Shown in pieces: positions 55 to 58,740 of a DNA stretch of 64,000 nucleotides. The notes beneath the pieces are model-generated. The model did no database searches, was not told where the DNA came from, and was given only the letters and a program-made list of their open reading frames with translations. Source of the stretch: Yuukianura sp. NJ FZ-2021. Its lineage: Eukaryota. Position 1 is the stretch's first letter, and every line of letters starts with the position of its first letter. The stretch is taken from the NCBI GenBank assembly GCA_046563655.1, contig CM102284.1:4650001-4714000 (forward strand), written 5' to 3'. Both the position numbers and the translations under genes were made by a program.

Positions 55-1058
55 GTTGCAAGCCATGTCTCCGCAGCATGCCACTCCACAGCAACAGCCA
101 CAAGCGCAAGGTCGCGTCACGTTAAAAATTTTGCGTCCACTAGCATCCAGAACGTAGAATACAAATGGTCGACCGGTTTTCCAGCAGCAAATTTTGCAGT
201 AGCTGTTGGTTTCGCAGAGCACAAAGAGGCGTTCCCCGTTTTGATCAAAAACGTCATACTTGAGAGCTTCATCGGAAGAAGGAATACCGACTGTGGAACC
301 AAAACAAAATGGTTGACCTTTTGACCTGAGTTCAACTATTTCTTATACCAATTTTGTATTGACAGAACTTACTTTCCAGTGGACTGTTGTTAATTTTCAA
401 GATGAAATGAGAAACGTTTTGCAGAATTAAGCCAAGGTCAACTGATGTCGGAGTTGGCATGAAGCTGACTTTCGGCTTATATTCGGCAAAACGGCCACTC
501 GATTTTTTAAGATTAAAATATCATCTTATATCAACTCTTGGGTGTAGATTCTGAATCTGAAATCCGTTTTTGGCGGTCGCACCTCCTTCTTAGTAAGATT
601 TATTAATTAAGATTCTAATTAACGATGTGAATTTCACATAAAGAATGAGAATTCCAAGTGTAACCAATGGATACCAAGAATTGTAGTTTGTTATACCCCC
701 GCGCCGAAGGCGCGCGTTAGGTTTGGTTAGCATTTAACAGCAACAATTTCTAATCTCCATTGGTTACATAATAAAAAATCTCATTCTGTATGTAAAATCC
801 TCATTAGAATCTTAATTAATGAATCTTACCAAGAAGGAGGTGTGACCGCCAAAAACGGATTTCAGATTCGGAATCTACACCCAAAAGTTGATATAAAACG
901 ATATTTTAATCGTAAAAAATCGAGTGGCCGTTTTGCCGAATTTGTTCCCTGACTTTCTTATTCGCATTTTCCTGATTGTTATTTTGGACATCGGGCAACA
1001 CTGGAGGAGTGGTTGGATTCGCGTTCGCCACAACGGTCGGATTCTGCGGCTGCGCCAT
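55..1058 (-). CDS. Phospholipid scramblase family protein, partial (continues past window start); coding segments 1058-954, about 475-373, 290-55; interrupted by the MITE at 474-948
   Basis: Manual translation gives a Pro/Asn-rich N-terminus MAQPQNPT..., then FMPTPTSVDLGLILQNVSHFILKINNSPLE and IGIPSSDEALKYDVFDQNGERLFVLCETNSYCKICCWKTGRPFVFYVLDASGRKIFNVTRPCACGCCCGVACC. This matches the PLSCR layout (KY.I...G..lf...E....C...CC....RPF...vlD..g..i..v.RP..C..CC). GT-AG intron 372-291 is phase-consistent; donor GTAAGG at 54. Confidence 0.8.
474..948. mobile_element. Mutator-like foldback MITE (475 bp) with long TIRs and 9-bp TSD
   Basis: Long imperfect inverted repeats (TTCGGCAAAACGGCCACTCGATTTTT... 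at 482 versus ...AAAAATCGAGTGGCCGTTTTGCCGAA ending 940), GG...CC termini, perfect 9-bp direct repeat CTGACTTTC at 465-473 and 949-957. Confidence 0.9.
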
Positions 1059-1290
1059 TTCAAACAAGAAACTCCAATTTAGAAACAACTACGGAAAAGT
1101 AATTGTCAAGTCGTCACATCGTGCATGTATCGCATATCCGTCGTCACTGAACGCCCTTGCTTGTTGTGTTTGTCCAGTTGTTTGTTTTGTACACTGGAAA
1201 AAGCGTTGCTAAGATAAAATTATCAAAAAAGTTAAACTTTAGTGCTAAAGATCCATTTATTTCTAGAAGTTCAAGACCTATAAAGTTTAG

Positions 1291-3391
1291 TTACATTGGG
1301 CAATTATGGGCCCATCTTGGAAATGGCGTTACATCTTTGATATTTGATCGTCCTAGGAGTAGCTGAAGTAGTCTGTCAAAGCCTAATCCGAAACCTCCAG
1401 AAGGAACTCCACCGAATTCTCGAAGTTCAAAGTACCAGGCCATGGACTGCTTCAATTTTCCAGAAGGATCCAGTGCCATAACGTTTGAATCCAGTTGAAC
1501 CATGTCGTTCTCCCTTAGACTTCCTCCGCAGAGTTCACCTATGCGAGGCACAAGCAAATCCACAGCTGAAACCTGTAGTTCACAATCAATTAACTCAAAT
1601 CAACATGAATATTATGAGAACGTGCTACTAAATGTTAGTAAAACTAGCTTACCAATTCGGGATCATCGATGCAACGTCTCATGTAAAATGGCTTGATGTC
1701 ACGAGGCCAGTTTACGACAAAAATTGGAGTGTCATCGTTCAGTTTTTCCACAAGAAATAGCTCTTGCTCTCGGTTTAGCCCTTGCCCGTCCAGTATCCGT
1801 GTTCCCATGTTGTCCTCAATCTGCTTTCGGGCTTCATTGAACGTCATGATGGTAAAACGTTTCTTGAGTATTCGCTCCAGGAGGTTCTGTAAATCAGATA
1901 AGTGAAATTTTAAATATGGAAAATTAATCAGCTCAATTAGTTTGATTGCTGCGCACCTTCGTGTCCTTTTGGTCTTCACAGCAGTAGTTCCATTCGCTGC
2001 TGGATTCAAACAGGATATGATTTATACAAAACTTCACAAGGTCCTCCATAACGCTCAGAATTTCTTGGATTTGATAAGCGAATGCAAGTTCGGCTTCCAC
2101 CATGTAGAATTCTGCTAGATGTCGAGTTGACTGCGCATTCTCAGCACGGAACACTGGGGACATTGTCCAAACGCGGTCGAGGCCACTGTGTAAACAAGAA
2201 AAACTTTTTGTGAGAAAGTTCAACATATTTTTCAGAAAAGCAATCAAATTCGTGAAAAATCTTACCCGACGGCGGCCTCCAGATGAAGTTGACTCGATAC
2301 TGTAAGAAATGCTCTGGAATTGAAAAATACTTCGTCAGGGTCTCTAGAAATGGTTTTCCCAGCATTGTCCCTACTGAAGGCAGTCGGCGCCATGTCTTGG
2401 ATGAGCTTCTCACTAAACGGTTTAGCAATGAACACTTCACCGGCTCCCTCGCAGTCATTGGCTGTTAGAACGGGGGTGTGGATTTGAGTAAAATCGTTTT
2501 GCGTAAAGAAATTATGAATGGCAGTCGATGTCGCACTCCTTAGACGCAGAAGAGAAGCAAATCTGTAACATCAAAGATCAACTTTTAGAAAACGTCTTTT
2601 CCTTCTGAAGCAGAAATCAAAACTGTTAGTTTTCTGGTTCCATGCCATTGTGTCAATTGAATTGTATCAACTGCCATTGTATCAACTGAATTGTGTCAAT
2701 TTGAATTGTATCAACGCTCAATTGTATCAACGGCTACTTGTATCAACCAACGTAACCAAACCTAACCTAAGCTAAATTAAGCATTACACTCGTTGACACA
2801 ATTAGTCGTTGATACAATTGACCGGTTGATACAATTCTAGTTGACACAATTCAGTTGATGCAATGGCAGTTGACACAATTCAATTGATACAATGGCGTGC
2901 TACCAGTTTTCTTACTTGCTATTTTTGAATCGAAGATGTGGATGTTGGCGGAGGAGATCCGGATCATGTCTTCCGAATTCTTTTCCAGCGAGAGGGTATT
3001 TCGTTTGGTCACAAGTTCCAAGGACTGTTACTGGAAATGTAGGATGAAGCTCCATCAAGTCTACGTTCCTTGGAGTGGGTACGAGGACTCCAGTAACATC
3101 AATTGACGAGTAAAGTGTCAAATCTGGTGGTTTGTCTTTGGCTTTGATGACAACTGGAATTTTATCCCAAGTAGATCCATCGTTGAGATCCACAAAGACG
3201 TAAGTCTTTTGCTTTCTCAGTGTTCGAACCCAACCCTGTAATAAAAAAATAAATGATTGTGAATAGTTTTTGCCAATAATTCTACTAAACTTTTTTAAAA
3301 AACAAACACAAAACTGAAAACTCCTTATGTATTGTTTCATGTGGATAAGGAGCACCAGACGCAACAAAACCGCGCGAATATTTGAGTTCAT
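1291..3391 (-). CDS. NARS2: Asparagine--tRNA ligase, mitochondrial type; exons about 3391/3236-2916, 2562-2266, 2185-1957, 1886-1653, 1572-1291 (5' end uncertain)
   Basis: OB-fold GWVRTLRKQKTYVFVDLNDGS; HTPVLTANDCEGAGEVF; TVSSQLHLE; motif 2 FRAENAQSTRHLAEFYMVEAE; KPFYM; GELCGGSLRE; motif 3 GGFGLGFDR...IKDVTPFPR; canonical GT-AG junctions. Confidence 0.93.
2636..2904. mobile_element. Foldback MITE (269 bp) in a NARS2 intron, TIRs built from ATTGT(A/G)TCAA subrepeats
   Basis: GGTTCCATGCCATTGTGTCAATTGAATTG... versus ...CAATTCAATTGATACAATGGCGTGCTACC; flanking direct repeat AGTTTTCT at 2628-2635 and 2905-2912; central AACCAAACCTAACCTAA. Confidence 0.88.
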
Positions 3392-3584
3392 TTCAGAGAA
3401 GGTTTTTAGAATCTCTGATTTTTTTTTTTTGCGAAATTCACAATTTTAAAAGTGCTGCTCTGCTTTTGAATTCTGAAAAGGTTGGTCAGTCATTTTCATT
3501 AGCATCGGCCAGGTCAGGGGTCACAAACGAAAAGGTTCCGGAGCTACTCGTGTCCCAATTTAACAATCAAAACTTATTTGCGAT

Positions 3585-4535: not shown

Positions 4536-5662
4536 CCGTATTTTCCCAAATAGTACACCTGGTGTACTAATTTTGTTTTCGACTTCTGGGGGTGGTGTAC
4601 TATTAGGGACCTGGTGTATTATTAGAGACGGTGTACTAATTAATTTTTTAAGAATGAGGATTTTATTCTTAACTAAAACGTTTAGGAATCAGGAGAAAAT
4701 AATTTCTAAATTACTAAAAACTACTCCACTTCGTTTTCAGAATCCGTATCCACAGTGTCCAGCTCGTATTCTTCTTCTCCATTTAAGTCAATCAACACTT
4801 CGTTGTTGTTGTCTTCTTCAGGATCTTCACAAATCTGCAGATCCTCCTCCTTTTGTATATTCCTTGTCGGAATCTCCTGCTAGCCAAGAATCGTAAAGTT
4901 CGGTAAATACGAGCTTTGAAGGGTTTATTCCAGCACAAATCTGGAGCTTGAATATACTTTGTACATCCTCCAGGAATGACTGTCATTGTGGTGTTGTAGC
5001 CAATGAGTTCACTTTTAGTATATTCACTGATGTGACATTTGTAAGAATCCCATGCTAACAAACGATGTTTGAAGGAAAATCGTGTGTACACAGTTTTCAA
5101 CCACTCACGGGTCAGATCATCGTTCATCTAACCATTTGAAGTGCTACGAATTACGATCCCAGTTTCTGTAAACAAAATACTGTTTCAGTATGAATGTAAT
5201 AATGAGGAAAAAAATTTTTATTCACAACAATTACTCACCTAAAGCATTTTCGTTTCTAATCCATGTCCGAATACTCTGTCGATCAATGTTGTATTCTTTA
5301 GCTGCTGCAGAACTTGATTTATCCTTGGCCAATTTCAATACTTTCAATTTGAACTCCAGGTCAAATGATCTTTTTTTGTTGGGAGACATTTTAAGTAAGA
5401 ATACGAATTTTAAGTAAAACAATTTGGAGAAGAAGTAACGTGGAGATAAATACAACAAATGAAGAGCTATAATATTAGCTCAACTAACTTCTCCGGGTGT
5501 TATACTCCTAATGCTACATTACCAAAGACCCTGGTGTACTATTAGAGACCTGGTGTACTATTTGGGACGGTGTACTAATTAATTTTTCGGGCCCTGGACC
5601 TGGTGTACTATTAGGGACCTGGTGTACTATTTAGGTATGGTGTACTATTAGGGAAAATACGG
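4536..5662 (-). mobile_element. pogo-like (Tc1/mariner superfamily) DNA transposon, internally deleted and non-autonomous
   Basis: TIRs CCGTATTTTCCC(A/T)AATAGTACACC at both ends, flanked by TA (4534-4535, 5663-5664); multiple subterminal GGTGTACTA repeats; internal transposase remnants. Confidence 0.92.
4792..5389 (-). pseudogene. Disabled pogo-type transposase (Brinker-like HTH plus partial DDE_1)
   Basis: MSPNKKRSFDLEFKLKVLKLAKDKSSSAAAKEYNIDRQSIRTW (HTH); intron 5238-5166; ETGIVIRSTSNG*MNDD (TAG at 5130-5128 where Trp is expected); LLAWDSYKCH, VIPGGCTKYIQAPDLCWNKPFK; a frameshift follows PFKARI. Confidence 0.88.
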
Positions 5663-6402: not shown

Positions 6403-7590
6403 ATGGTAACATTTAAAGTACCGCCCACACCGACGTTGATGGAGAGCGGTGGAGTAGACGGATTCAAAGGTATGAAATGTTATTTGTACCGTTAAATGAA
6501 CATGAATTATATTTCCGTTTGTTGGTATATAATGTAATAACAACTGATTCCTTTTACCGCAGTACTGGAGTGGAAAATCAGCGAAGAAAGTACGCCAATC
6601 CGACACTTTTTTGTCAAAGAGCACAGAGCTAAAGGTGATGCGAGTCTGCGAAAACCCAATGGTCGTACATTGATAGTTATAAATGTTCCACCTTTAGTCA
6701 CTCAGGTAAATTAATCTCTCAAGGAAGTTCAAACTCACTTAAGTATTTACTAAATATTTCACCGTTGTCTTCAACAGGAAGGCTTAGAAAGAATGTTCAG
6801 TGTCTTTGGAAAAGTCCAGGACGTATTTATCCATCAGAATCCTACAATGACGTTACCAGAAAAGGAAGACCCATTCTTTCCGCTGCAAAAGAACATGATT
6901 ACTGGCTATCGGATGGCGTATATCGTTTACCAATTGGGTGCAAGTGTTGCAGCCATCCTGAAACTTAAACCTAGCGAAATGTCACCCCTAATCCTCGGAA
7001 AGACAGAGACTGGCTTGAAACGCTGGATTTCAATATACAACAGTAGACTAACGGACATGACAACATTGGAAAACCATGTCAAAACGTTTATGTTGAATTA
7101 CGAACAAGCCGAACTACGAAGAAAAGAAGAGGAAAGGAACAACGAAGGAAAAGTCGATGAGGATGGCTGGACAACTGTAACCCGAAGGTAATTTTTGGAC
7201 TCTGGCTAACCTTTTCCCCGAAAAAGTTCAAGTTTCTCGTTACAATTATGATTGAATTGGTTTTGAATTGCAGAGGTAAACGACCAGGAACAGCGAGAAC
7301 AGAAAAGACAGAAGAGAGGTTGAAGACAAAGAAGCGGCGACAAGAGAAGGAATTGATGAATTTTACTCCAACGCAGATCAAAGAAAGTCGAGCAAACCGT
7401 GAGTTCAAATGCAAAATCGTGTGCCTCCTTTACGATACAACTAAGAAACCTTCTCACTCTTGATTTTAATTAAAATACTTTCGTCTTTTCCAAATAATTT
7501 ACAGAGTTGCTGGAGCTGAAGAAGAAGTTTGACGATGACAAGCAGCGGGTGGCACTTCTGAGGCAACAAAGGAAGTTTAGACCATTTTGA
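6403..7590 (+). CDS. RRP7A: Ribosomal RNA-processing protein 7 homolog A; exons 6403-6469, 6563-6705, 6778-7187, 7274-7398, 7505-7590
   Basis: HFFVKEH...RTLIVINVPP RRM-like N-terminus; DEDGWTTVTRRGK; KELMNF..Q.KE; LLELKKKFDDDKQRVALLRQQRKFRPF* C-terminus; phase-consistent GT-AG introns. Confidence 0.93.
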
Positions 7591-11900: not shown

Positions 11901-12717
11901 TGGTGCTCTGAGGTTACGTTGTGGTGTATTTGATATCAAAGTCAAAGAGTAAATGTGGAATTTTGTGAAGAGCAAAGGTGAAAGCTAACTTTTCCAAGCT
12001 AAACTAACAAGCCTAAGTTTTCCCGCATCCTGATTTTGGGTTGAAGATTTTGAAATATTCAAGTGCGTGGTGAAAGTCCAAAGTGTGCTTAGATTTTGGT
12101 TGTTTCGCGTTTTTCGGGATAGAAAGCAAGGTTTTGAGTTATTCTGAAGCTTTGAAGAACGAGATATTCATATTCAATTTGTCTCAAAGCGATAGAAGAC
12201 TGTAAAAGCGTATTAATAGTTAAAGGTCCCAGCACTGTAGTTGCTCCTAGTGCACTTTGGACGAATTCGTGCCATGAAATAGTCACTGTCACTGAGGGTT
12301 TTGGCGTTTTCGTTTTCTTTTTTTCTTCGTTTTCTTTTTTGGTTTTGTGCTCTCGGAAGCTAAAACGGACTGCCGAGAAGACGTCACAAGATTCTTGGTG
12401 TTCTGCAGGGTGATGTGCAATTTTTTCGCTATGTTGAATCTCCTTGAAGACGAAGAACGACGGGAAGTCATAGCTTTTATGCATTTCTTTTTACGAGGAA
12501 AATAGCGCATAGTACCGAATACGAAACTGCTAGTATGAGAACGTGAGAACAAAAATGAAGATGAGCTGGAAAATTTTCATGTGTTCTTGATCCATTTTTG
12601 GTTTCAAATTATTACTGTTCGGTGTTAAAGCGTGCAAGGGATAGAAGTGAGTGAGTTTTAGAAATCGCTCAATTTGAAAACTTTTTGACACAAATTGACA
12701 AATTTTTAGGAAATTCC

Positions 12718-12885
12718 GGTTCCAGGTAATTTGGTCGGAATTGGATTGGTCGAAAACGCAGATGTCGGCAAACCTAACCTACCCCTAGCGTTAGAAAGGT
12801 TAACCAAACCTAACCTAAATCCCATATACGCCTGCCGACCTCTGCCATTCCGACCAATTCACTTCCGACCAAATTACCTGCTACG
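12718..12885. mobile_element. Short Mutator-like MITE (168 bp) with 9-bp TSD
   Basis: TIR core CAGGTAATTTGGTCGGAA / TTCCGACCAAATTACCTG; termini GGTTCC...GCTACG; perfect TSD GGAAATTCC at 12709-12717 and 12886-12894; internal AACCAAACCTAACCTAA. Confidence 0.9.
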
Positions 12886-15800
12886 GGAAATTCCAAGTAT
12901 CAACCAGTAGGCTTTCCGTTTGGTTAGATTTTCCACTTGACGACTATAGGAATCAATGTCTACGTCATCGGAATCAGCAGACACAGATCGTAACTTCCCG
13001 GGTCCCGGAAGTAAGAAGCACAATGTGGAAAATTGCCAAAAATGAATCACGCCCGCCGCCAACTTTCCGAAATTCTTGTCAGAAACGGTATTTCTTACAG
13101 CCACCCAATTCGCGGAAGTGGATAATAACGTCTTGTCCGACGTAGGTGACGTGAGATCGCTTACGTCACTTAATCCGTGAAAATTGGCGGAAGGAATTTT
13201 TCTGGAAGAAAGCAAAAAAGCAATATGGGTTTACGAATAAATGGAGAAAGTTAGGGTTCTGCAGTTTTTTTTTCTTCATTTCAAGTAGCATTCTCGCTTA
13301 AGGTTAGGGTTCAGGGAGTGAATTTAGGCAAAACAGAATGAATGACGGATTTTGCTTGATGCTATGTTTGATCCTTGAGTTGGCTATTCGACCTACGTAA
13401 AAGATGAGGAGCACTTGACTTTCTCTTGGATAACAGTATGAGAAGTTACATACAGCTTAGGTTGTATTGGATCCTGAGAGAAATGGAGATGGGCTTAAGT
13501 GGACAGGCTCTTGAAGTTAATTAACAAAATTAAAGTGAATGTAGTGCGGGGGAGGAAGAAATGTGAGAGTCCCGGATACTTCCGTGTAGTGCCTGGAGGC
13601 GTTCAAACGATTTTGTGCTGGGAGTGTAAAAAAAAGTGAAAGTGCTGGAGCATCTTTTTTTTTAGCTTGTTTCTCTAAAAATCACAATGAAAATTGGTTC
13701 AACCCGGCAGAATAGACAGAATAGAATCACTTGCCAGAGGCGAGAGAAATAGTTTTATGGAGCTGTAAAGTTTTATGCATTGGAGCTGGAGGGTGTTGCT
13801 CTAAGCATATGTGAACTCGTTTGGAAATTGAGGCCGCTGTTTTTCAGTTCGGTGTAATCTATGAGAAACGACATTTACTTGTTGGAGTTGGAATTTCCGG
13901 GTTTCCGGAGCTTCAGTTCCCAAAAGATTCCCAGCTAAACCTATTTCCAAGAACATATCATAACCTAGAGAGAATCCAACCATGTACTACGATTAGCTGT
14001 TTTTTTGAGAGTGAGAGCAACAACTAAGCTTACTCCATCCGCTTATTCCTTAGTTTATACTTTAGGGAATAAAGTAGTTTTCGGTTGTAGGAATCCGGGA
14101 GAAGTAAAATCCGGAGTTCTTCGGGATGCGTTCTTTATTTAAAGGAAATTCGGGAGTCTCTGGCATTTCTGAGTTTGGAGAGTGGAGCTTAAAAGGAATT
14201 AGGAATGTGAAAGTAAGTTTTTTGTATAAGTCTTCATAGAAAGTGTTTCCGAGAAAGGCAAAGGAGGTTGGCGTGAGTTATGAATGAATTCCAAATGGAA
14301 TCTTAATTACGAAATATCTGTCTTTGTTCCTCTTGAATTATAACTGGCAATTTTGCAGAAATGAGATTTTAGTATGCTTTTTTGAAATTTTGAGACGAAA
14401 ACTATGCTTGGTTGTTTGAGGGGAAAGTAAAATGTGAAAGTGGGAAGAGTGAGCATTCACTTTTGTTGTTGAATTGTCTGATTTTGAAAGTTTTTTGAGC
14501 AATATTTTAAAGATTGGTGAGAGTTTGAAGGGTGAATTTAAAGTAGCCTTCGAAGTATTTTTAAGTGAGACATTATTTAGGGAATCACTGTCAGAAATTA
14601 GAAACTAAGCGGAAGGTGATGTAAATGATGTTTACCACTAATTTTGTGTCTAGTGATAATTTCGGCGTAGGTGTTAGAATGTTAATCACGTACTTAACAT
14701 GGGAAGGTCATATATGACGCGTGTGCTAAAAGTTACGGCGTTGAGGATTTTGAAGAAGATGCTCTGATTTTAATTACCTGAGTCCTATTTATATGCTGGT
14801 CCAGAGAAACAGGCAAAAGTGATTGAGAGGCGAATGTAATTTAAATGCAAATTCTAAAATTTAGTGTAGAGGAGGAACTTTGTTATGAAGTTAAGTTTGA
14901 GCATCTTCATCATCAAGTCATCCAAGCGTGAATTATTAGAGGAACACAAAAAACAGGGCAGTGTCAATTAATTCCAAAGCCGATTATTGCCTATGTTTTT
15001 GTAATTTATGGAGCAACGCGGGAGAGCGAAGGCGTAACTGATTTCGATTTTCCAAAAAAGAAAATCGCGTGGAAACATTTTCTAAGAGATTTTGTGTAAA
15101 GATTTCTAACTTTTACAAAATGATTTAAAAAGCGAGAAAGTTTTTGTATTTTGGGATTTTGGTGATGGATGTTTTGGAGAAAGTTGATTTTTTTTTAATT
15201 TTTTAAAAATTGGAAGTCGAAGTTTCTTTTTTCTCGTTTTTTCTTGGAGTGGTCAAAATGTGAAAAGTGAAATTTTTGTCGTAATTCAGTTTTTCTCTCT
15301 TTTTCTGGTTTCTTTTTCCGTTTTTGTTTGAAGTTGAAAGACAAGAGTGAAAGTCCTTTTACTTTGAAAACTTTGAAGGCAGAGAGAGCGAGAGAGAATT
15401 GTCGGGTGAAATGAGTGAATTTGATTAGTGCTGAAGCAGGAGAGTCACTCTTGGATGGATTCACTAATTTGATTAGCAAAGCCTTTGTCTACTACTGTCC
15501 AATCCAGAAGTATGGGGAGACCATTTAATTTTAGACAGAGAGCTACTTTTATTTACTTTCCATTTTCAATATGGATTAACTAACTGCCTCATCTGCTCCA
15601 TATTGTTCCGAATTTCACTGAATTTCGGAACTGCTTCGTTGAGGATATGGCAACTTTTTGAATTTTGACAACAGTGATGGTGACTGGAAACTTGTAAAGT
15701 TTGCGGAACTGACAAATTTCGAAATTGGACTTGAGAATTTTGAAATGTCAAAGTTGAACGGAGTTTAGGAGGAAAAGAAAGTGAACGAGGACGGAAGACG

Positions 15801-17560: not shown

Positions 17561-17963
17561 GACAGTTCTAGGAGAACGTGTGCCTTGATTAATCGATTAA
17601 ATAGTCAGTCACGACTTGATTAATCGATTGCTCACATTAAAACACGTCCAGCCTAACTTTCCCTCCAGTACTCCCCACACACCCCACACGGTCCACGTAA
17701 AATTTAGACGCAAATCAGATAACGTTTTAGAAAATTCTGTTGAGCTAGTTGGTTGTTTTCATTTTTATATTTGGAAACTTTGTAGCACCCGTTGCCATGG
17801 TGTTGAAATTTTTTGAGTTGTTTAAACATTTTAGTGTGTATGTTTCGAGGATTTTGAAAAAATCGGATTTGACTTGACTAACGGATTTTTGTTGTTCTAA
17901 ATTTCAGGAGGTGGTTGGATAGCTGTTGTTGAGAGACATCGAATCTTCTGAGTCAGTTTGAAA

Positions 17964-18347
17964 ATGGAGAATCGTCCAAGATATCGTGTTCCAGACGAAC
18001 TGCGTGAAACACTGCTTGACTTTACGATTGCCTACCTCCTCGAACGTCCCAACAACTTGGCCACATTTGGACTCAACTTCTTCCAGCGTCTAAAGGATGA
18101 ACATGAAGGTGGCGGTGGTACTGGTCCACGCCCTGCTCCAGCCACAGCCGTCAACGGCGGAGAGGAGAATGACATTGAAGGTAATTTTGCTCTAGACAAA
18201 CCCATTGTTGACTGGATTGTCCATTTTTCCATTGTGTACGTCATCGAGCAACCCGCCAATATTTATGACTTTGGAATTCTCTACTGTCGCAAGAAGGAAC
18301 GAGCGGCGGAAGCAGCAGCTTCGGCTATGGCCATCAGAACATATTAA
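17964..18347 (+). CDS. Predicted read-through isoform of PKA-RII with two tandem D/D domains (127 aa)
   Basis: The ORF stays open across the donor at 18181 and encodes [37 protein letters not shown], which aligns without gaps to the first D/D domain. Confidence 0.6.
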   Translation: MENRPRYRVPDELRETLLDFTIAYLLERPNNLATFGLNFFQRLKDEHEGGGGTGPRPAPATAVNGGEENDIEGNFALDKPIVDWIVHFSIVYVIEQPANIYDFGILYCRKKERAAEAAASAMAIRTY

Positions 18348-24300: not shown

Positions 24301-27300
24301 TTTTCATTTGAGCTGGTTGAAGTAGTTCCTGGAATTTGGGGATTTTGTAATAGAGCTTTTCATGTGCTCCTGAATAAGGTTCTTTTTTAATTACTTTTAA
24401 GAAATTGTTTATTTTGACTCTTGAGGAGGAAGAAAAAGATGGAAGAGTGGAAGGAAAGTTGTAACTAATTGAATTTATTTTTAATTTTCTAGGTAATTCA
24501 TCCGAAATCTGACAGCCAACGAGCTCGTCTTGCCGAAGCTGTGAAACATATCCTCCTGTTCCGTTCCCTTGATGGGGTAAGTAACAATGTTTTCAATTCT
24601 GCTTTCATGTTTTGAAAATTTTAGCTTTGTCTTGGGATTTTGAAACTTTATTTTCAACTTAAAAGTTGGGAGATGGAGGACGGAGGAGGAAGGATAGGAA
24701 TTGGTTTGAGATTTTGAAGTTTGTGCGAGAGAATGGCAGAATTTGTTTTGTCGTTGGAAAACTACAAAAGTTGGAAAGTTTTGTTTGTTGAAAGAAAAGT
24801 CAAGTTTGAAGTTGAACTTTTGGGGAACAAATAATTATTATGTTTGTTATCCTTCTGGACTTTTTTTCCCCGCTTGGAAAGTCTCAAATCCAGCAGAGAA
24901 AGTTAGGGCTGACGTTGTGTTGAGTGTTGGCGAGGTGAATGTGTCCGTGTTTCGCGTGACAGACCTCTGTAAGCCTGGAAGCCACGATTTCAAGACTTTA
25001 GTTGGAAAAGTTTATTTCTTTTTGGCAAAACGCAAAAGGAAAGCTGGAAAAGTGGCTGGAGAAAAGTGGAGGGCCTGGATGGCTTTGAGGTTCCTGGATT
25101 TTCCTTCTACTCTAGACGCCTTAAACCCGGAGGGTTAGCGTTTTTCCCGGGATAAAGTTGAATCTTCGGTGCCTTCATAAAACCTTTGAGCTTTGGTGAC
25201 TAAAAGTTAGAATATGGAACGTGAAAGTTGCCCTGGAAAGGTGAAAAGTTAATTGACAAACGAAACTTATCCGCGAGCTGAGCCTGGGTATCGAGTATCG
25301 ACTATCGTGATGTTGGCTTTATTTTAAGTTAGGTATGAGTATGTTAATTTCACCTGGATGTCGTGCTTTGTTTCTTTAACTAGGCGAGTGATGCTCTCCT
25401 ACTTAAGAATAAGCTCCCAATTAATGTCTACACGGGTAGTTTATTTTGGAAATGACTGAGAGCGTGAATTTGAGGGGAAAATGCTTTACTTGGAAGAGGT
25501 AGACATCCACATCAGTGTAAATCATGACGATGAAGGGAGATCAGGAGCCTAATATCATTAGTTTTTATATTGAATCGTCACGGTCGAGGAGTAGACGTCG
25601 GAGAGAAAGTCATTCACGTCCTGAAGTGGTTTTGGGAAGCTTTAAGTGTAGTCGTGATGATCTTCATTATATTTATCCACTGGGAGGGTTTTTCATTATA
25701 ATAAGTTTGAGGAACCTGGTTATGCTTTAGGTTGGGTTTTTATGACTTCCTTTTTCAGTTTATGTTAGGTTTGGTGCTTTTGACAGCGTAATGAAAGTCA
25801 CAGAATGAAAGGAGAGTAAGAGAAAGCAGAATGGAGCTGTCACCGGAAGGCGGGATTTTGGAAAGGTTAGAAGAGTGGAGAAAGTTAAAACATTAAATAT
25901 AATTAAATTACCTTGGAATTTTTAATTTTTTGAATGTAAAAGTTGGGTTTTGCATGGTAAAACATGAAGGAGAACTGAGGAAAAGAAATTTTACGTTTTT
26001 GAAATTTGCAATTTGTTCAGGGTTTTACATAAAATGAGGTTTTTCGCAATGCGGCTGGTGAAATTTAGTTTTCTCTTGGGTTTTGACTCTCTAGGAAGAA
26101 GGAATAAGGAATCGATTCATTGTTTGATGAAGACAAAGTGTGTCTGTCTGGAGAGGTGATTTACTTGGACACAGAATTGCTTCCTGGAAGGATACACAAA
26201 GATACAATATTACAATGGACAGCTTTTCCTTTTGTTTAGTTAGTCTTTTGTAGTGTGAGAGGGCTAAATAAACCGAGTGGTTTGGGAAAACCTAATGAGG
26301 CTGCTAATGAATATTCATGTTTTCCGGTTGGTCACTCTTCTGTTTCTAAAACCACGAGCTTGTTGGGAAGGCTAGTTTTACCAATTTTAGAAATTTGAGA
26401 CACAGCGAAATTTTCGAAAATTGGGAATCGAAAGTTGTGCTACTAAAAAGTTGTGAGTGAGGGAGAAATAATTTGCATTTCAAAAGTCTCTGGTTTTTTG
26501 GCTGGCGCGAATTTGCTATTGATTTTTCGCCAGTCTACTCTTTCTGATAATGATCAACGAGTGCTTTCTCTTTTCGGCATCTTGTACGTTAGGAACTGTG
26601 CATGGGTTGTGTAGGAATTTGGAATTTGGCGCTAATTGGAAAAACCATGAGTTAGGGGAAGGACTTGTTCCCTTGTGCCTTTGAGCCAAAACTTCCAGAA
26701 TTCTTCTGATGTTTGCTTTCTCTTTGATCACATTCACTGCTGGGGAGGTGACCATTATAAAACCTGAGCACTGGAGCAGATCTGTCTTCATTTAGTCCAA
26801 TGTTGGCCATTTTCTTTGACTTCCATTTTAGTATTTGCGTTTCTTCTTTCTAGCAGAGTATTCTATTTGAACAGGTCTAAGCTTCTATTCTTGTTCAAAT
26901 TTCTAACAAGGTTGATCCTAAAAGATGGATTTCATTTGACTAACAAGGAAACATGGAAGCTTAGACCCATTATTGTTGCCAAATGAGAAATGCTGAGAAC
27001 TCATGTTCTCAGATTTCAATTAGGGCTGGGAAATGGGAGAATCAAGGTCAAAAACGTTAGGAACTTGAGTGGAGAAAATAAAAATAAAAGTACTTTGTAA
27101 CGTTGCGTTCCAGATTCGCAATTATGTGGGGCAACATAATTGCGAATTTGGAAAGTAGTAAAGAGGATTTTGGTTGAAATTGTGGGAAGAAATACTTAAG
27201 TTTGGTATGCGTGGGAAGGAAGAAGAGAGGCTTAGAAGCGGATTGGTTGTTGAGGATGTTGTGCTCGATTTGGAAGTAATTGTTGTGCAGTTTAGTTTGG

Positions 27301-30300
27301 GAATTAGATTTTGGAGATTGGAGCTGAGTCTGAGGTTTTTAGACTACATGACTGCAATACACTTGGGAACGAGTTTTGTAGAATCTTCTGCGGTGCTGGA
27401 GGAGTGGATTAAATAAATGGTAAAAGCTTTGGAGATTTCATGCTCTGAGCAGTTTCTTTTTTGATTCTCCAGCGGAGACATGGGAGTAATTGAAAATGTT
27501 GAGGCGTTGATGTAAAAAGTGGTCGTGGTAAGCATTATTCTGTAAAGTAGATTTACCTTTCATTTTTGAAATGTTGCGCCAAAAGGCGTAGCAACCATCA
27601 CATCATGTTTTTCTTGGATGACTGGAGTTAAAGTACTATTTTACCTTGATGTTTTTTTTCCCCGGTAAGGTTTTAGGTTTTGTACTTTCTCCTTTGCCGC
27701 TTTCACTTTCTTGGAGTGCTTTGTCGGATTAAGGAAGAAGGGAACCTCATGATTTTTCCATTTGGAAAATAAGGGAAGTTGAAGGAGAAGGAAGCTTTTG
27801 GTTGGTTTTAAGGCTGGTGGGTTTTGGTGGGTCTCTTGATGGTTGGCGGTGGTGCTGGTGGGGCTCTTGATGGTTACTGGTGGTGGTGCTCGTGGTGGAG
27901 TTAGGGATAAGATGCCTGTCGATGAGCCTCGTTACGGAAAGCTATCGATCTTAAGGCCAGGGAAAGGCTGAAGCGTTTTACACTGCCTCGTAACTTTGTC
28001 TACGAGCGAGCTACACACAGCAAGGATCTTCTTCAAAGAAACTTTTGGTTTTGGCAGAACAAGAACTGCCGAATAGGTTTTTCTTTTAGGTCTATCAAAG
28101 TGGACGTAGGCTATCATTCTGTGTGTCCTTCTTGAAGATGGCTTCGTTGATGATGAAAAGTTTTACTCAGAGGCTGATTGGATACGAGATTGAAGTCCGG
28201 CGAAACGAGAACGGCCTTGTCGCTTGAGGCAGCTTTGGAGTCATGGTGACATGCTGAGACCAAGGTTCACCTGGAGAGATGGAGAAGTTAGTCAATATTC
28301 GTAAGGTAAAAGCTGGCATGAGCTATGCGATGAAGGAGCTAGGAGAATCGATCGGAAGTTTTGGATTCATATTCTGGGGAAAGGCTTACTACTTCGTGCT
28401 GCTTTTTAGGTCGTTGACAGAGAGAAAGCAGTATAGGAAGTTTGGTTCAAAACTAAAATGTAAAAGCTGTCAAAGACACGACGAGAAATTGAAACCCGCT
28501 GGGTGAAAGTTTTTGACATGACGGAAATGGCAACTGTAGAGAAATGAGAACTTTGGAAGTAAAACTTGGGATATAAAAGTGGCAACGAAGTACAAATCCG
28601 TGGAGGCTACTACATTATGTAGTAAAGTTAGAAAGTTACGAACATTAATGTGAAAATGAGTCATTGAGATGGTGATTAAGTAATGGAAAATAAATCTTGT
28701 TTTCCCCTGTGGGAAGGCGGTAGCAGTGTCGCTGGAAGTACCAGTACGGCCAGGATTTTGTAAGGTTTGGTGAATTTTAGGTTAGGCTAAAAGGTTAAGC
28801 CGGGCTGAGGATGCTCGGAGAAAGACAAATTTCGCTTTTAACATGTCTGTCTTTTGACTAATGCTTCAAACTGTTTTATTTTTCATGAAAAGGAAAGTGT
28901 TGTGCATAAAAATTTGAGTTCAGTGTCTGGCTGCTTTTTATAAAATGTGGCTAAATGGAGCTGGACATGGAAAGCGCTGAGAGTTTCCGTAGATTCAGCG
29001 TCACGACACGACGCGCTGTTTTGGCTTGGAGTTCCCATCATTCCCCTGAGTTATTGATTTTCTCTGCCTTTCTTCTGCTCGTTTTTATCATTTCCTTTGT
29101 CACGACGAAGGACTTTCTCCGTTTGAACTACTACTGCACGCTTCGGTGAGCGAACTGTGAATGCTACCTAGAAGATGCTGCTACTACTACGAGATGCTGG
29201 CTAGCAGTTCACCGCATTTATGCAATGGTTGCTTACAAGGAATGTAGATGAATGAATTTTACACGTTTATATAGGTAGTTGTACGCATTTCGTACGTAGA
29301 ACTTAAATTGAAAAAGAATAGGAATTCATCAAAGAGGGAAACTTTCCTCTCATTCAATTGGTAAACCCAACTACTAATATTTTTAGTAAATGCGTTTATG
29401 TAAATACGTAAATTTAGTAAATACTTCTGTAATTGATACATTACTACTCCACTATAACCGAAATTAACCTTCTCTGCCGATCATCAAACTATTAAATGTC
29501 ATCCGTCTGGATTTTTGCGTATATTTCAGTGTGTACTCCCACTTAGCGTCGATTGCAAGAGTCTTTATAAACATATTACAGTGGATTCTCTAAATAAGGG
29601 ACAGGAGCTCCTCCTCTTTCTCACTTTCACTCGAAGTCGCGGTACCGTAAAGTTTTAATTTTGGAGGGAACGTATGTTTCAGTTTATCGGCTTATTTTTT
29701 ACGATTGTTTTTTTTTGGTTAATTTTTTTTTTGGTGCGAAACAAAAGTAATTAGATAATTAAATGGAATTAACTAATATTAATATATATATATTATATAT
29801 ATATATCTGCGCACAACCTGCGCAACAGCGCACAACCTGCGCAACTGCGCACAACCTGCGCACAACCTGCGCAACAGCGCACAAACTGCGCAACTGCGCA
29901 CAAACTGCGCAACTGCGCACAACCTGCGCAACAGCGCACAAACTGCGCAACAGCGCACAAACTGCGCAACAGCGCACAAACTGCGCAACAGCGCACAAAC
30001 TGCGCAACAGCGCACAAACTGCGCAACAGCGCACAAACTGCGCAACAGCGCACAAACTGCGCAACTGCGCACTGTATATAATATATTATATTATATAACC
30101 TGTTTAATAAGGGTGACATTCACAACGTAATTTGCATATAATATACCATGTAATATTGATTCGTATATAGATATCACATATAATTAGCATTAATATATGA
30201 ATATTATGTATATTAATATTAATTATATACTCTGAACTTCGAAACAGGAAATTTTCATTAGAATGGTGTTCCTAGCCTTAAATTCCATATAACTGACCGT

Positions 30301-41263: not shown

Positions 41264-58740
<17,477 letters not shown>

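Follow-up and report, generated by a model that had tools for sequence, protein, structure and literature searches.

The window, by which we mean the whole 64-kb stretch of DNA that was analyzed, holds at its left end the beginning of a phospholipid-scramblase-family gene on the minus strand; the gene exits the window at this end, and its remainder lies outside. Coding starts at an ATG (1058-1056), and the first part of what is now an interrupted exon (949..1058) specifies a P/Q/N-rich N-terminal segment. The second part of the original exon (373..473) ends at the donor AAA|GTAAGT (GT at 372-371) and is followed by an ordinary intron of 82 nt (291..372; GTAAGT … TTCCACAG) and by the next coding exon (55..290), all on the minus strand. 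The translation of exon 55-290 matched the Pfam Scramblase profile PF03803 with an E value of 1.6e-10 (41.2 bits, cut-off 25.4) over profile positions 44-104 of 221, position 44 corresponding to residue 10 of the exon. The Atlas clusters nearest to the scramblase translation are themselves scramblases (0.91); when the exon-3 translation was compared with longer proteins, six candidates shared words with it and none scored. Exons 2 and 3 of the gene are intact in the window and show no sign of decay.

The neighboring gene (1330-3445, minus strand) encodes a class II aminoacyl-tRNA synthetase of the D/K/N type, with matches to tRNA-synt_2 and to an OB-fold anticodon-binding domain, and its introns are short (70-80 nt). 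Exons of three further genes were recognized by their domains: a protein with an RRP7 C-terminal domain at 6754-7191 (plus strand; E 1.3e-9), a RIIa-domain protein at 17952-18347 (plus strand; E 3.7e-5), and a DOT1 histone methyltransferase at 48441-48803 (minus strand; E 2.9e-29). An open frame at 4792-5127 (minus strand) gave a weak match to DDE_1, a pogo/Tigger-type transposase domain (E 3e-4; 20.8 bits, below the cut-off of 22), and is probably a decayed transposase remnant. A tandem array at 29809-30072, made of 14.3 copies of the 19-bp unit GCGCACAAACTGCGCAACA with 90% matches, yields long open frames that are spurious.

The first coding exon of the scramblase gene is interrupted by a 475-bp insert (474..948) that lies between two exact copies of the 9-mer CTGACTTTC; a repeat search gave a start-to-start spacing of 484 for the two. 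The gene-downstream copy of this target-site duplication (465..473) reads CTGACTTTC on the plus strand, and its nine letters fit either side when 464 is joined to 949. The gene-upstream copy (949..957), which on the minus strand reads GAAAGTCAG, contains the GT of the candidate splice donor discussed below. Removing 484 bases in silico leaves a single open frame (...NKKVSFMP...) through all three pieces of the gene. A preliminary description of this DNA had drawn the element and its 9-base duplication at these same limits and had placed the insert inside a coding exon, and on both counts it was right.

The insert is near-palindromic. Its left long inverted arm (481..619, 139 nt) pairs with a right arm (803..941, also 139 nt) that is 94% complementary to it, shorter inverted pairs inside the element reach almost to its center, and self-alignment of the element with its own reverse complement gave 81.9% over 474 columns. 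A 24-base subterminal core has exactly two exact occurrences in the 64-kb window, one at each end of the element, against an expectation of 0.00. The outermost seven bases, read inward, are GGCTTAT (474-480) at one end and GGAACAA (942-948, other strand) at the other, so that four of seven agree, and an AG (477-476) is present at one end only. Stop-to-stop frames that touch the element reach at most 73 amino acids, and no transposase gene was found, as judged from the list of open reading frames. The central loop carries the motif AACCAAACCTAAC (716..728, minus strand), which adjoins a short GC-rich hairpin (~700-720) and is common to two other palindromic elements in the window. With inverted repeats near both ends, a target-site duplication together with a one-copy empty site, a small size, and many copies (the empty site and the many copies are taken up below for public DNA), the insert is a MITE-type transposon in coding sequence, i.e., a non-autonomous DNA transposon of the MITE or foldback-like kind.

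Within the 64-kb window, a scan with the core combined with self-alignment found no second copy of the element and no fragment of more than 26 bases. Exact scans with the 24-base core of metagenome, viral, and prokaryote-genome collections gave 0 matches each, and in the insect MITE literature no fitting family with a 9-bp duplication was found. A duplication of this length would presumably fit the MULE or Merlin superfamily.

Two further palindromic elements were noted. The second (2635-2905; arms 2634-2715 and 2825-2906, 90%; GTTTTC at 2629-2634 and at 2906-2911) is intronic in the class II tRNA-synthetase gene, its start falling about 10 nt beyond a donor assigned by eye, AA|GTAAGA (GT at 2915-2914), and the third (~12709-12894) has arms of 62 nt that are 84% complementary and 62 nt apart. 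All three palindromic MITE-like elements carry the 14-mer TAACCAAACCTAAC in the central loop, and the sequences surrounding it are unrelated. The 13-mer AACCAAACCTAAC, which contains CCTAA units, is exact at 716-728 (minus strand), 2754-2766 (plus strand), and 12802-12814 (plus strand), and is found with one mismatch at 25764-25776 (minus strand); these are four matches at up to one mismatch, where 0.16 were expected.

Five public runs cover the locus, all of them taken as DNA, four from one sample and one from another study with another organism label. Positions 1-2500 of the window were compared, at 85% likeness, with the runs X1, X2, X3, and X5; X1-X3 are from one sample, and the compared runs span two studies. 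In each of the four, one contig joined 464 directly to 949, with 484 bases skipped and nine letters shared. The shorter side of this joint measured 21 letters in X1, 44 in X2, 255 in X3, and 41 in X5; counting a bridge as firm at 31 letters or more, X2, X3, and X5 pass, and X1 falls below. The X3 joint sits in a contig of 44,374 bases that extends across the neighboring gene; over 949-2500 (1,552 bases), 59 letters and 19 gaps set this contig apart from the window. Depths of the empty-site contigs were 130.8, 115.6, 48.1, and 2.6, values that are not convertible to allele frequencies.

Haplotypes around 949-2500 are strongly diverged, and especially so at 1018, where six window bases are missing from the sole contig in all four runs. 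This is an in-frame indel (ANAN vs. AN), and it means that the window's own exon-1 haplotype was present at 1018 in none of the four runs, bearing in mind that contigs show presence and not absence. The scramblase N-terminal segment also differs between haplotypes by a Thr/Ala change at 1010, a 1-base indel occurs at 1072, just upstream of ATG 1058, and at least two further haplotypes exist at 1063-1084.

The empty site thus coexists with the filled allele in the same or a very close organism. Because it is found in other DNA, the insertion is young and not fixed, and the failure of the window's exon-1 haplotype to appear at 1018 in any of the four runs fits an insertion that is not fixed. The preliminary description had called the insertion recent and had proposed a search for the empty site in other individuals; contigs of all four DNA runs, from the two studies, supply it, with firm bridges in three.

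The same runs show that the element belongs to a multi-copy family and that the boundary at 948 is common to other copies. Summed contig depth in X1 was 4,356-49,574 in the bins of the element and 162-493 in the flanking bins, a 10- to 250-fold excess that implies no copy count, and several contigs agree with the element as far as 948 and continue into unrelated sequence, leaving loose ends behind 948/949. The element bin that includes the AACCAAACCTAAC motif had the highest depth in all four runs. We also entertained the idea that the family has symmetric ends and that the right end seen here is aberrant, some contigs of other copies leaving at 941 with ATAAGCC. It was dropped: these contigs may be reversed left ends lying on the right arm, which is 94% alike, and three X2 contigs match through 948.

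When the insert is retained, the frame that opens at ATG 1058 runs, as had been predicted, into an in-frame TAA within the element (906..908, minus strand; ORF 906..1088), which is reached after 50 codons; the long reading frame is therefore broken. We think it probable that the window carries a young, segregating insertion allele in which the long scramblase frame has been lost in this way. In outline, a 475-bp non-autonomous cut-and-paste MITE, long-armed and hairpin-forming, would have been mobilized in trans, and a staggered 9-bp cut would have been made in the first coding exon of the scramblase gene, at the boundary of a short disordered N-terminus and the scramblase domain. That placement follows by arithmetic from the PF03803 match, according to which the insertion should lie at about the start of the profile, behind the short P/Q/N-rich N-terminus. 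The filled haplotype would have lost the full-length frame, stopping after 50 codons, and its transcript would carry a perfect-like RNA hairpin of ~230 bp. For the long protein, the filled allele is most likely a loss- or reduction-of-function allele. It need not be null, because a downstream in-frame ATG (458..460, minus strand), which by arithmetic would fall some 3-4 residues past the point where the Scramblase profile begins, would give a product that keeps nearly the whole domain; use of this ATG or minor cryptic splicing would soften the effect of the insertion, if anything does. The cryptic splice pair 953/476, which is considered below, would on this account be at most a minor by-product, like imprecise transposon splicing, and not an established intron. 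Imprecise splicing of transposon insertions in exons is known for Tc1 in C. elegans.

The insertion could instead be tolerated without being spliced if the functional start is ATG 460 and the sequence upstream of it is a leader or a dispensable N-terminus. The element would then affect nothing but the 5' portion of the mRNA, for example through its translation efficiency or through a new transcription start within or beyond the element. By the arithmetic given above, ATG 460 would stand approximately at the start of the Scramblase profile, and the N-terminus before it does vary between haplotypes, both by the 6-base indel and by the Thr/Ala change at 1010. Without the insert, a run of 48 codons from the upstream stop to ATG 460 is free of stops; because 6.3% of shuffles are open too, this is only modest evidence of coding. 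However, the upstream frame is open, begins at the first ATG that follows a stop, and reads into the domain in phase; the sole indel within it has a length divisible by three, the 1-base indel at 1072 lying outside. In addition, many extra upstream ATGs and a long predicted hairpin would precede ATG 460 in the filled transcript and should hamper scanning. We regard tolerance without splicing as unlikely.

It has also to be asked whether the insert is an incipient intron, i.e., whether the spliceosome efficiently removes 953..476 and yields a functional protein with Pro-Lys added, the intron itself being still polymorphic. The candidate donor (AAA|GTCAGG; GT at 952..953, minus strand) lies within the target-site duplication, and the candidate acceptor (…GCCGAATATAAG|CC; AG at 476..477, minus strand) lies two nucleotides inside the element end. 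The upstream exon would end after the AAA at 954, in phase 0, and splicing from 953 to 476 would remove 478 of the 484 added nucleotides; the six that stay behind would encode Pro-Lys (...NKKPKVSFMP...), in frame. Pairing each of the 24 GTs from the ATG to the far end of the element with each of the 26 AGs between 957 and the exon's end left eight pairs that keep the frame and meet no stop, with 953/476 ranking first among them by a crude consensus count that involved no trained model. An additional point in favor is that the site is in a poorly constrained N-terminal segment, which also has the in-frame 6-base indel between haplotypes, so that two extra residues should be tolerated there. It speaks for the reading, too, that a TTAAT stands 37 nt ahead of the candidate AG. 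Precedents in kind are described in PMC9860276 and PMC3443670.

An in-frame arrangement is nevertheless easily come by. For acceptor 476, it is necessary only that a donor GT occupy offsets 2-3, 5-6, or 8-9 of the 9-mer target, and 19,879 of the 127,982 9-mers of the window (15.5%) do so; at that rate among random targets, the in-frame possibility alone is no signal. Nor are the sites themselves persuasive. The donor agrees with the consensus at six of nine positions and has C at +3, and of its bases the insertion has altered none but that at +6. The intact exon already contains this GTCAG, unused, and it occurs again at 469. The acceptor ends in AAG, with A at -3, and its pyrimidine fraction is 0.53 over -20..-4. 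By comparison, three neighboring introns, identified by eye and then tested for frame, have lengths of 82, 80, and 70 nt, donors GTAAGT, GTAAGC, and GTGCGC, and CAG at every acceptor, and in the one tract of theirs that was measured the pyrimidine fraction is 0.76. On this crude count, the candidate donor and acceptor look weak beside those of neighboring real introns. Competing AGs are present at 465 and 498, out of frame with donor 953. The element itself contains a donor with a better core, TTG|GTAAGA, at 829, past the stop. The only branch-like sequence is TTAAT at 516-512. The arithmetic of the 953-to-476 splice, the restriction of the AG to the acceptor-side end, the competing AGs, and the weakness of the acceptor had all been set out in the preliminary description, and each was reproduced; even so, in-frame removal of the insert holds only on paper.

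RNA folding bears on the same question. For RNA 465-957, the predicted fold has an energy of -288.4 kcal/mol, compared with -102.3 ± 5.8 in 100 shuffles (z -32). The predicted stem covers all of 481-619, including TTAAT at 516-512 and the UUUU before the acceptor, and leaves only the last AUAAG and the donor region unpaired. Recognition of a 3' splice site requires that U2AF and U2 read the branch and pyrimidine region. Such a hairpin would therefore cut both ways: the two splice dinucleotides would be unpaired and side by side at its foot, but the branch and the tract, on which U2AF and U2 depend, would be buried in the 139-bp duplex, which is 94% paired. In its most favorable form, the argument for splicing is that the hairpin loops out the insert and joins the GT of the duplication to the AG of the element end, so that carriers would produce a working scramblase lengthened by two residues; if true, an AG two bases from the end would predispose this MITE family to the creation of introns. 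We regard this proto-introner variant, like efficient removal of an incipient intron in general, as quite improbable; the empty site in every run compared (4/4) also weighs against it. The preliminary description had left the choice between a new, introner-like intron and a recent null allele. Of that proposal, a recent MITE insertion in coding sequence is supported, whereas the introner-like gain is a conjecture whose signals look weak and lie mostly buried in a predicted hairpin, and whose in-frame layout is expected in 15.5% of random targets.

An assembly artefact, in which the element was simply misplaced by the assembler, is scarcely credible: the element is multi-copy, and among the contigs listed none bridges the filled junctions (which is no evidence of absence), but a misplaced repeat would lack an exact 9-base duplication of a single-copy target, and the empty-site contigs carry one copy of the 9-mer. 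The exact duplication and the precise empty-site contigs together indicate a true transposition, neither a chance repeat nor a misassembly.

We thus return to a disrupted, segregating allele as the preferred explanation. The counterweights to it are those already met, namely that 953/476 is the best of the eight pairs, that its dinucleotides would be unpaired at the foot of the hairpin, that introners provide precedents, and that exons 2 and 3 are intact.

Among known systems, the introners of Micromonas, Aureococcus, Symbiodinium, and others resemble this element in being small and non-autonomous and in having inverted ends and a target-site duplication (PMC9860276). According to the same source, there are introner families in which the 3' site lies in the element, the 5' site comes from the duplication, and a few codons are added; an Aureococcus introner adds 12 bases, or four residues. 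A GT..AG that is supplied by the element and its duplication and that restores the frame is likewise found here in 953/476, at the chance rate given above. Introners are, however, defined by many near-identical copies spliced from unrelated genes, whereas this element stands only once in the window, and its candidate signals look weak. Unlike introners, moreover, this element has 139-nt arms that would bury the branch and pyrimidine region. We have not filed it as an introner, the defining features of which are splicing in vivo and many sequence-similar introns. Introners were extended to many transposon orders in a 2025 study (PMC12130899). In the main texts of PMC9860276 and PMC12130899, the word "arthropod" does not occur, and a reference or a rate estimate is the only place where "insect" does.

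Among the ways in which introns can be gained, transposon insertion has been listed as one for which the evidence, from Oryza, Drosophila, Oikopleura, and Zea, is indirect (PMC3443670). The maize Ds/dSpm alleles (Giroux et al.) are alike in that a DNA transposon sits in an exon, cryptic GT/AG sites lie near its ends, and a small in-frame scar is left; the Ds/dSpm and Tc1 cases rest on cDNA of the mutant alleles, whereas ours is read from genomic DNA. The introns of Fritillaria borealis and of euglenids are thought to be MITE-derived, with inverted ends that pair in the RNA and juxtapose the intron ends (PMC11282704). Those introns have non-canonical ends and lineage-specific splicing, whereas the candidate ends here are canonical GT..AG. 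Insect MITE families, as collected in iMITEdb, share with this element a length under 800 bp, AT-richness, terminal inverted repeats, a target-site duplication, and multiple copies (criteria of PMC5199201), and it differs from them in that the outermost seven bases of its two ends are not alike.

As it stands, the locus is a clean and ordinary case of an active MITE family making a segregating exon insertion, and the filled allele provides a useful marker as well as a naturally occurring mutant of the scramblase gene. Should the in-frame junction be present in RNA of carriers, the two alleles would offer a direct before-and-after comparison of intron gain from a transposon in one population, which is rarely available outside protists and fungi. 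They would also allow a test of the effect, favorable or adverse, of a long RNA hairpin on the recognition of weak splice sites. Even if it is spliced, the insert would add one more case to a mechanism already known, valuable because both alleles coexist.
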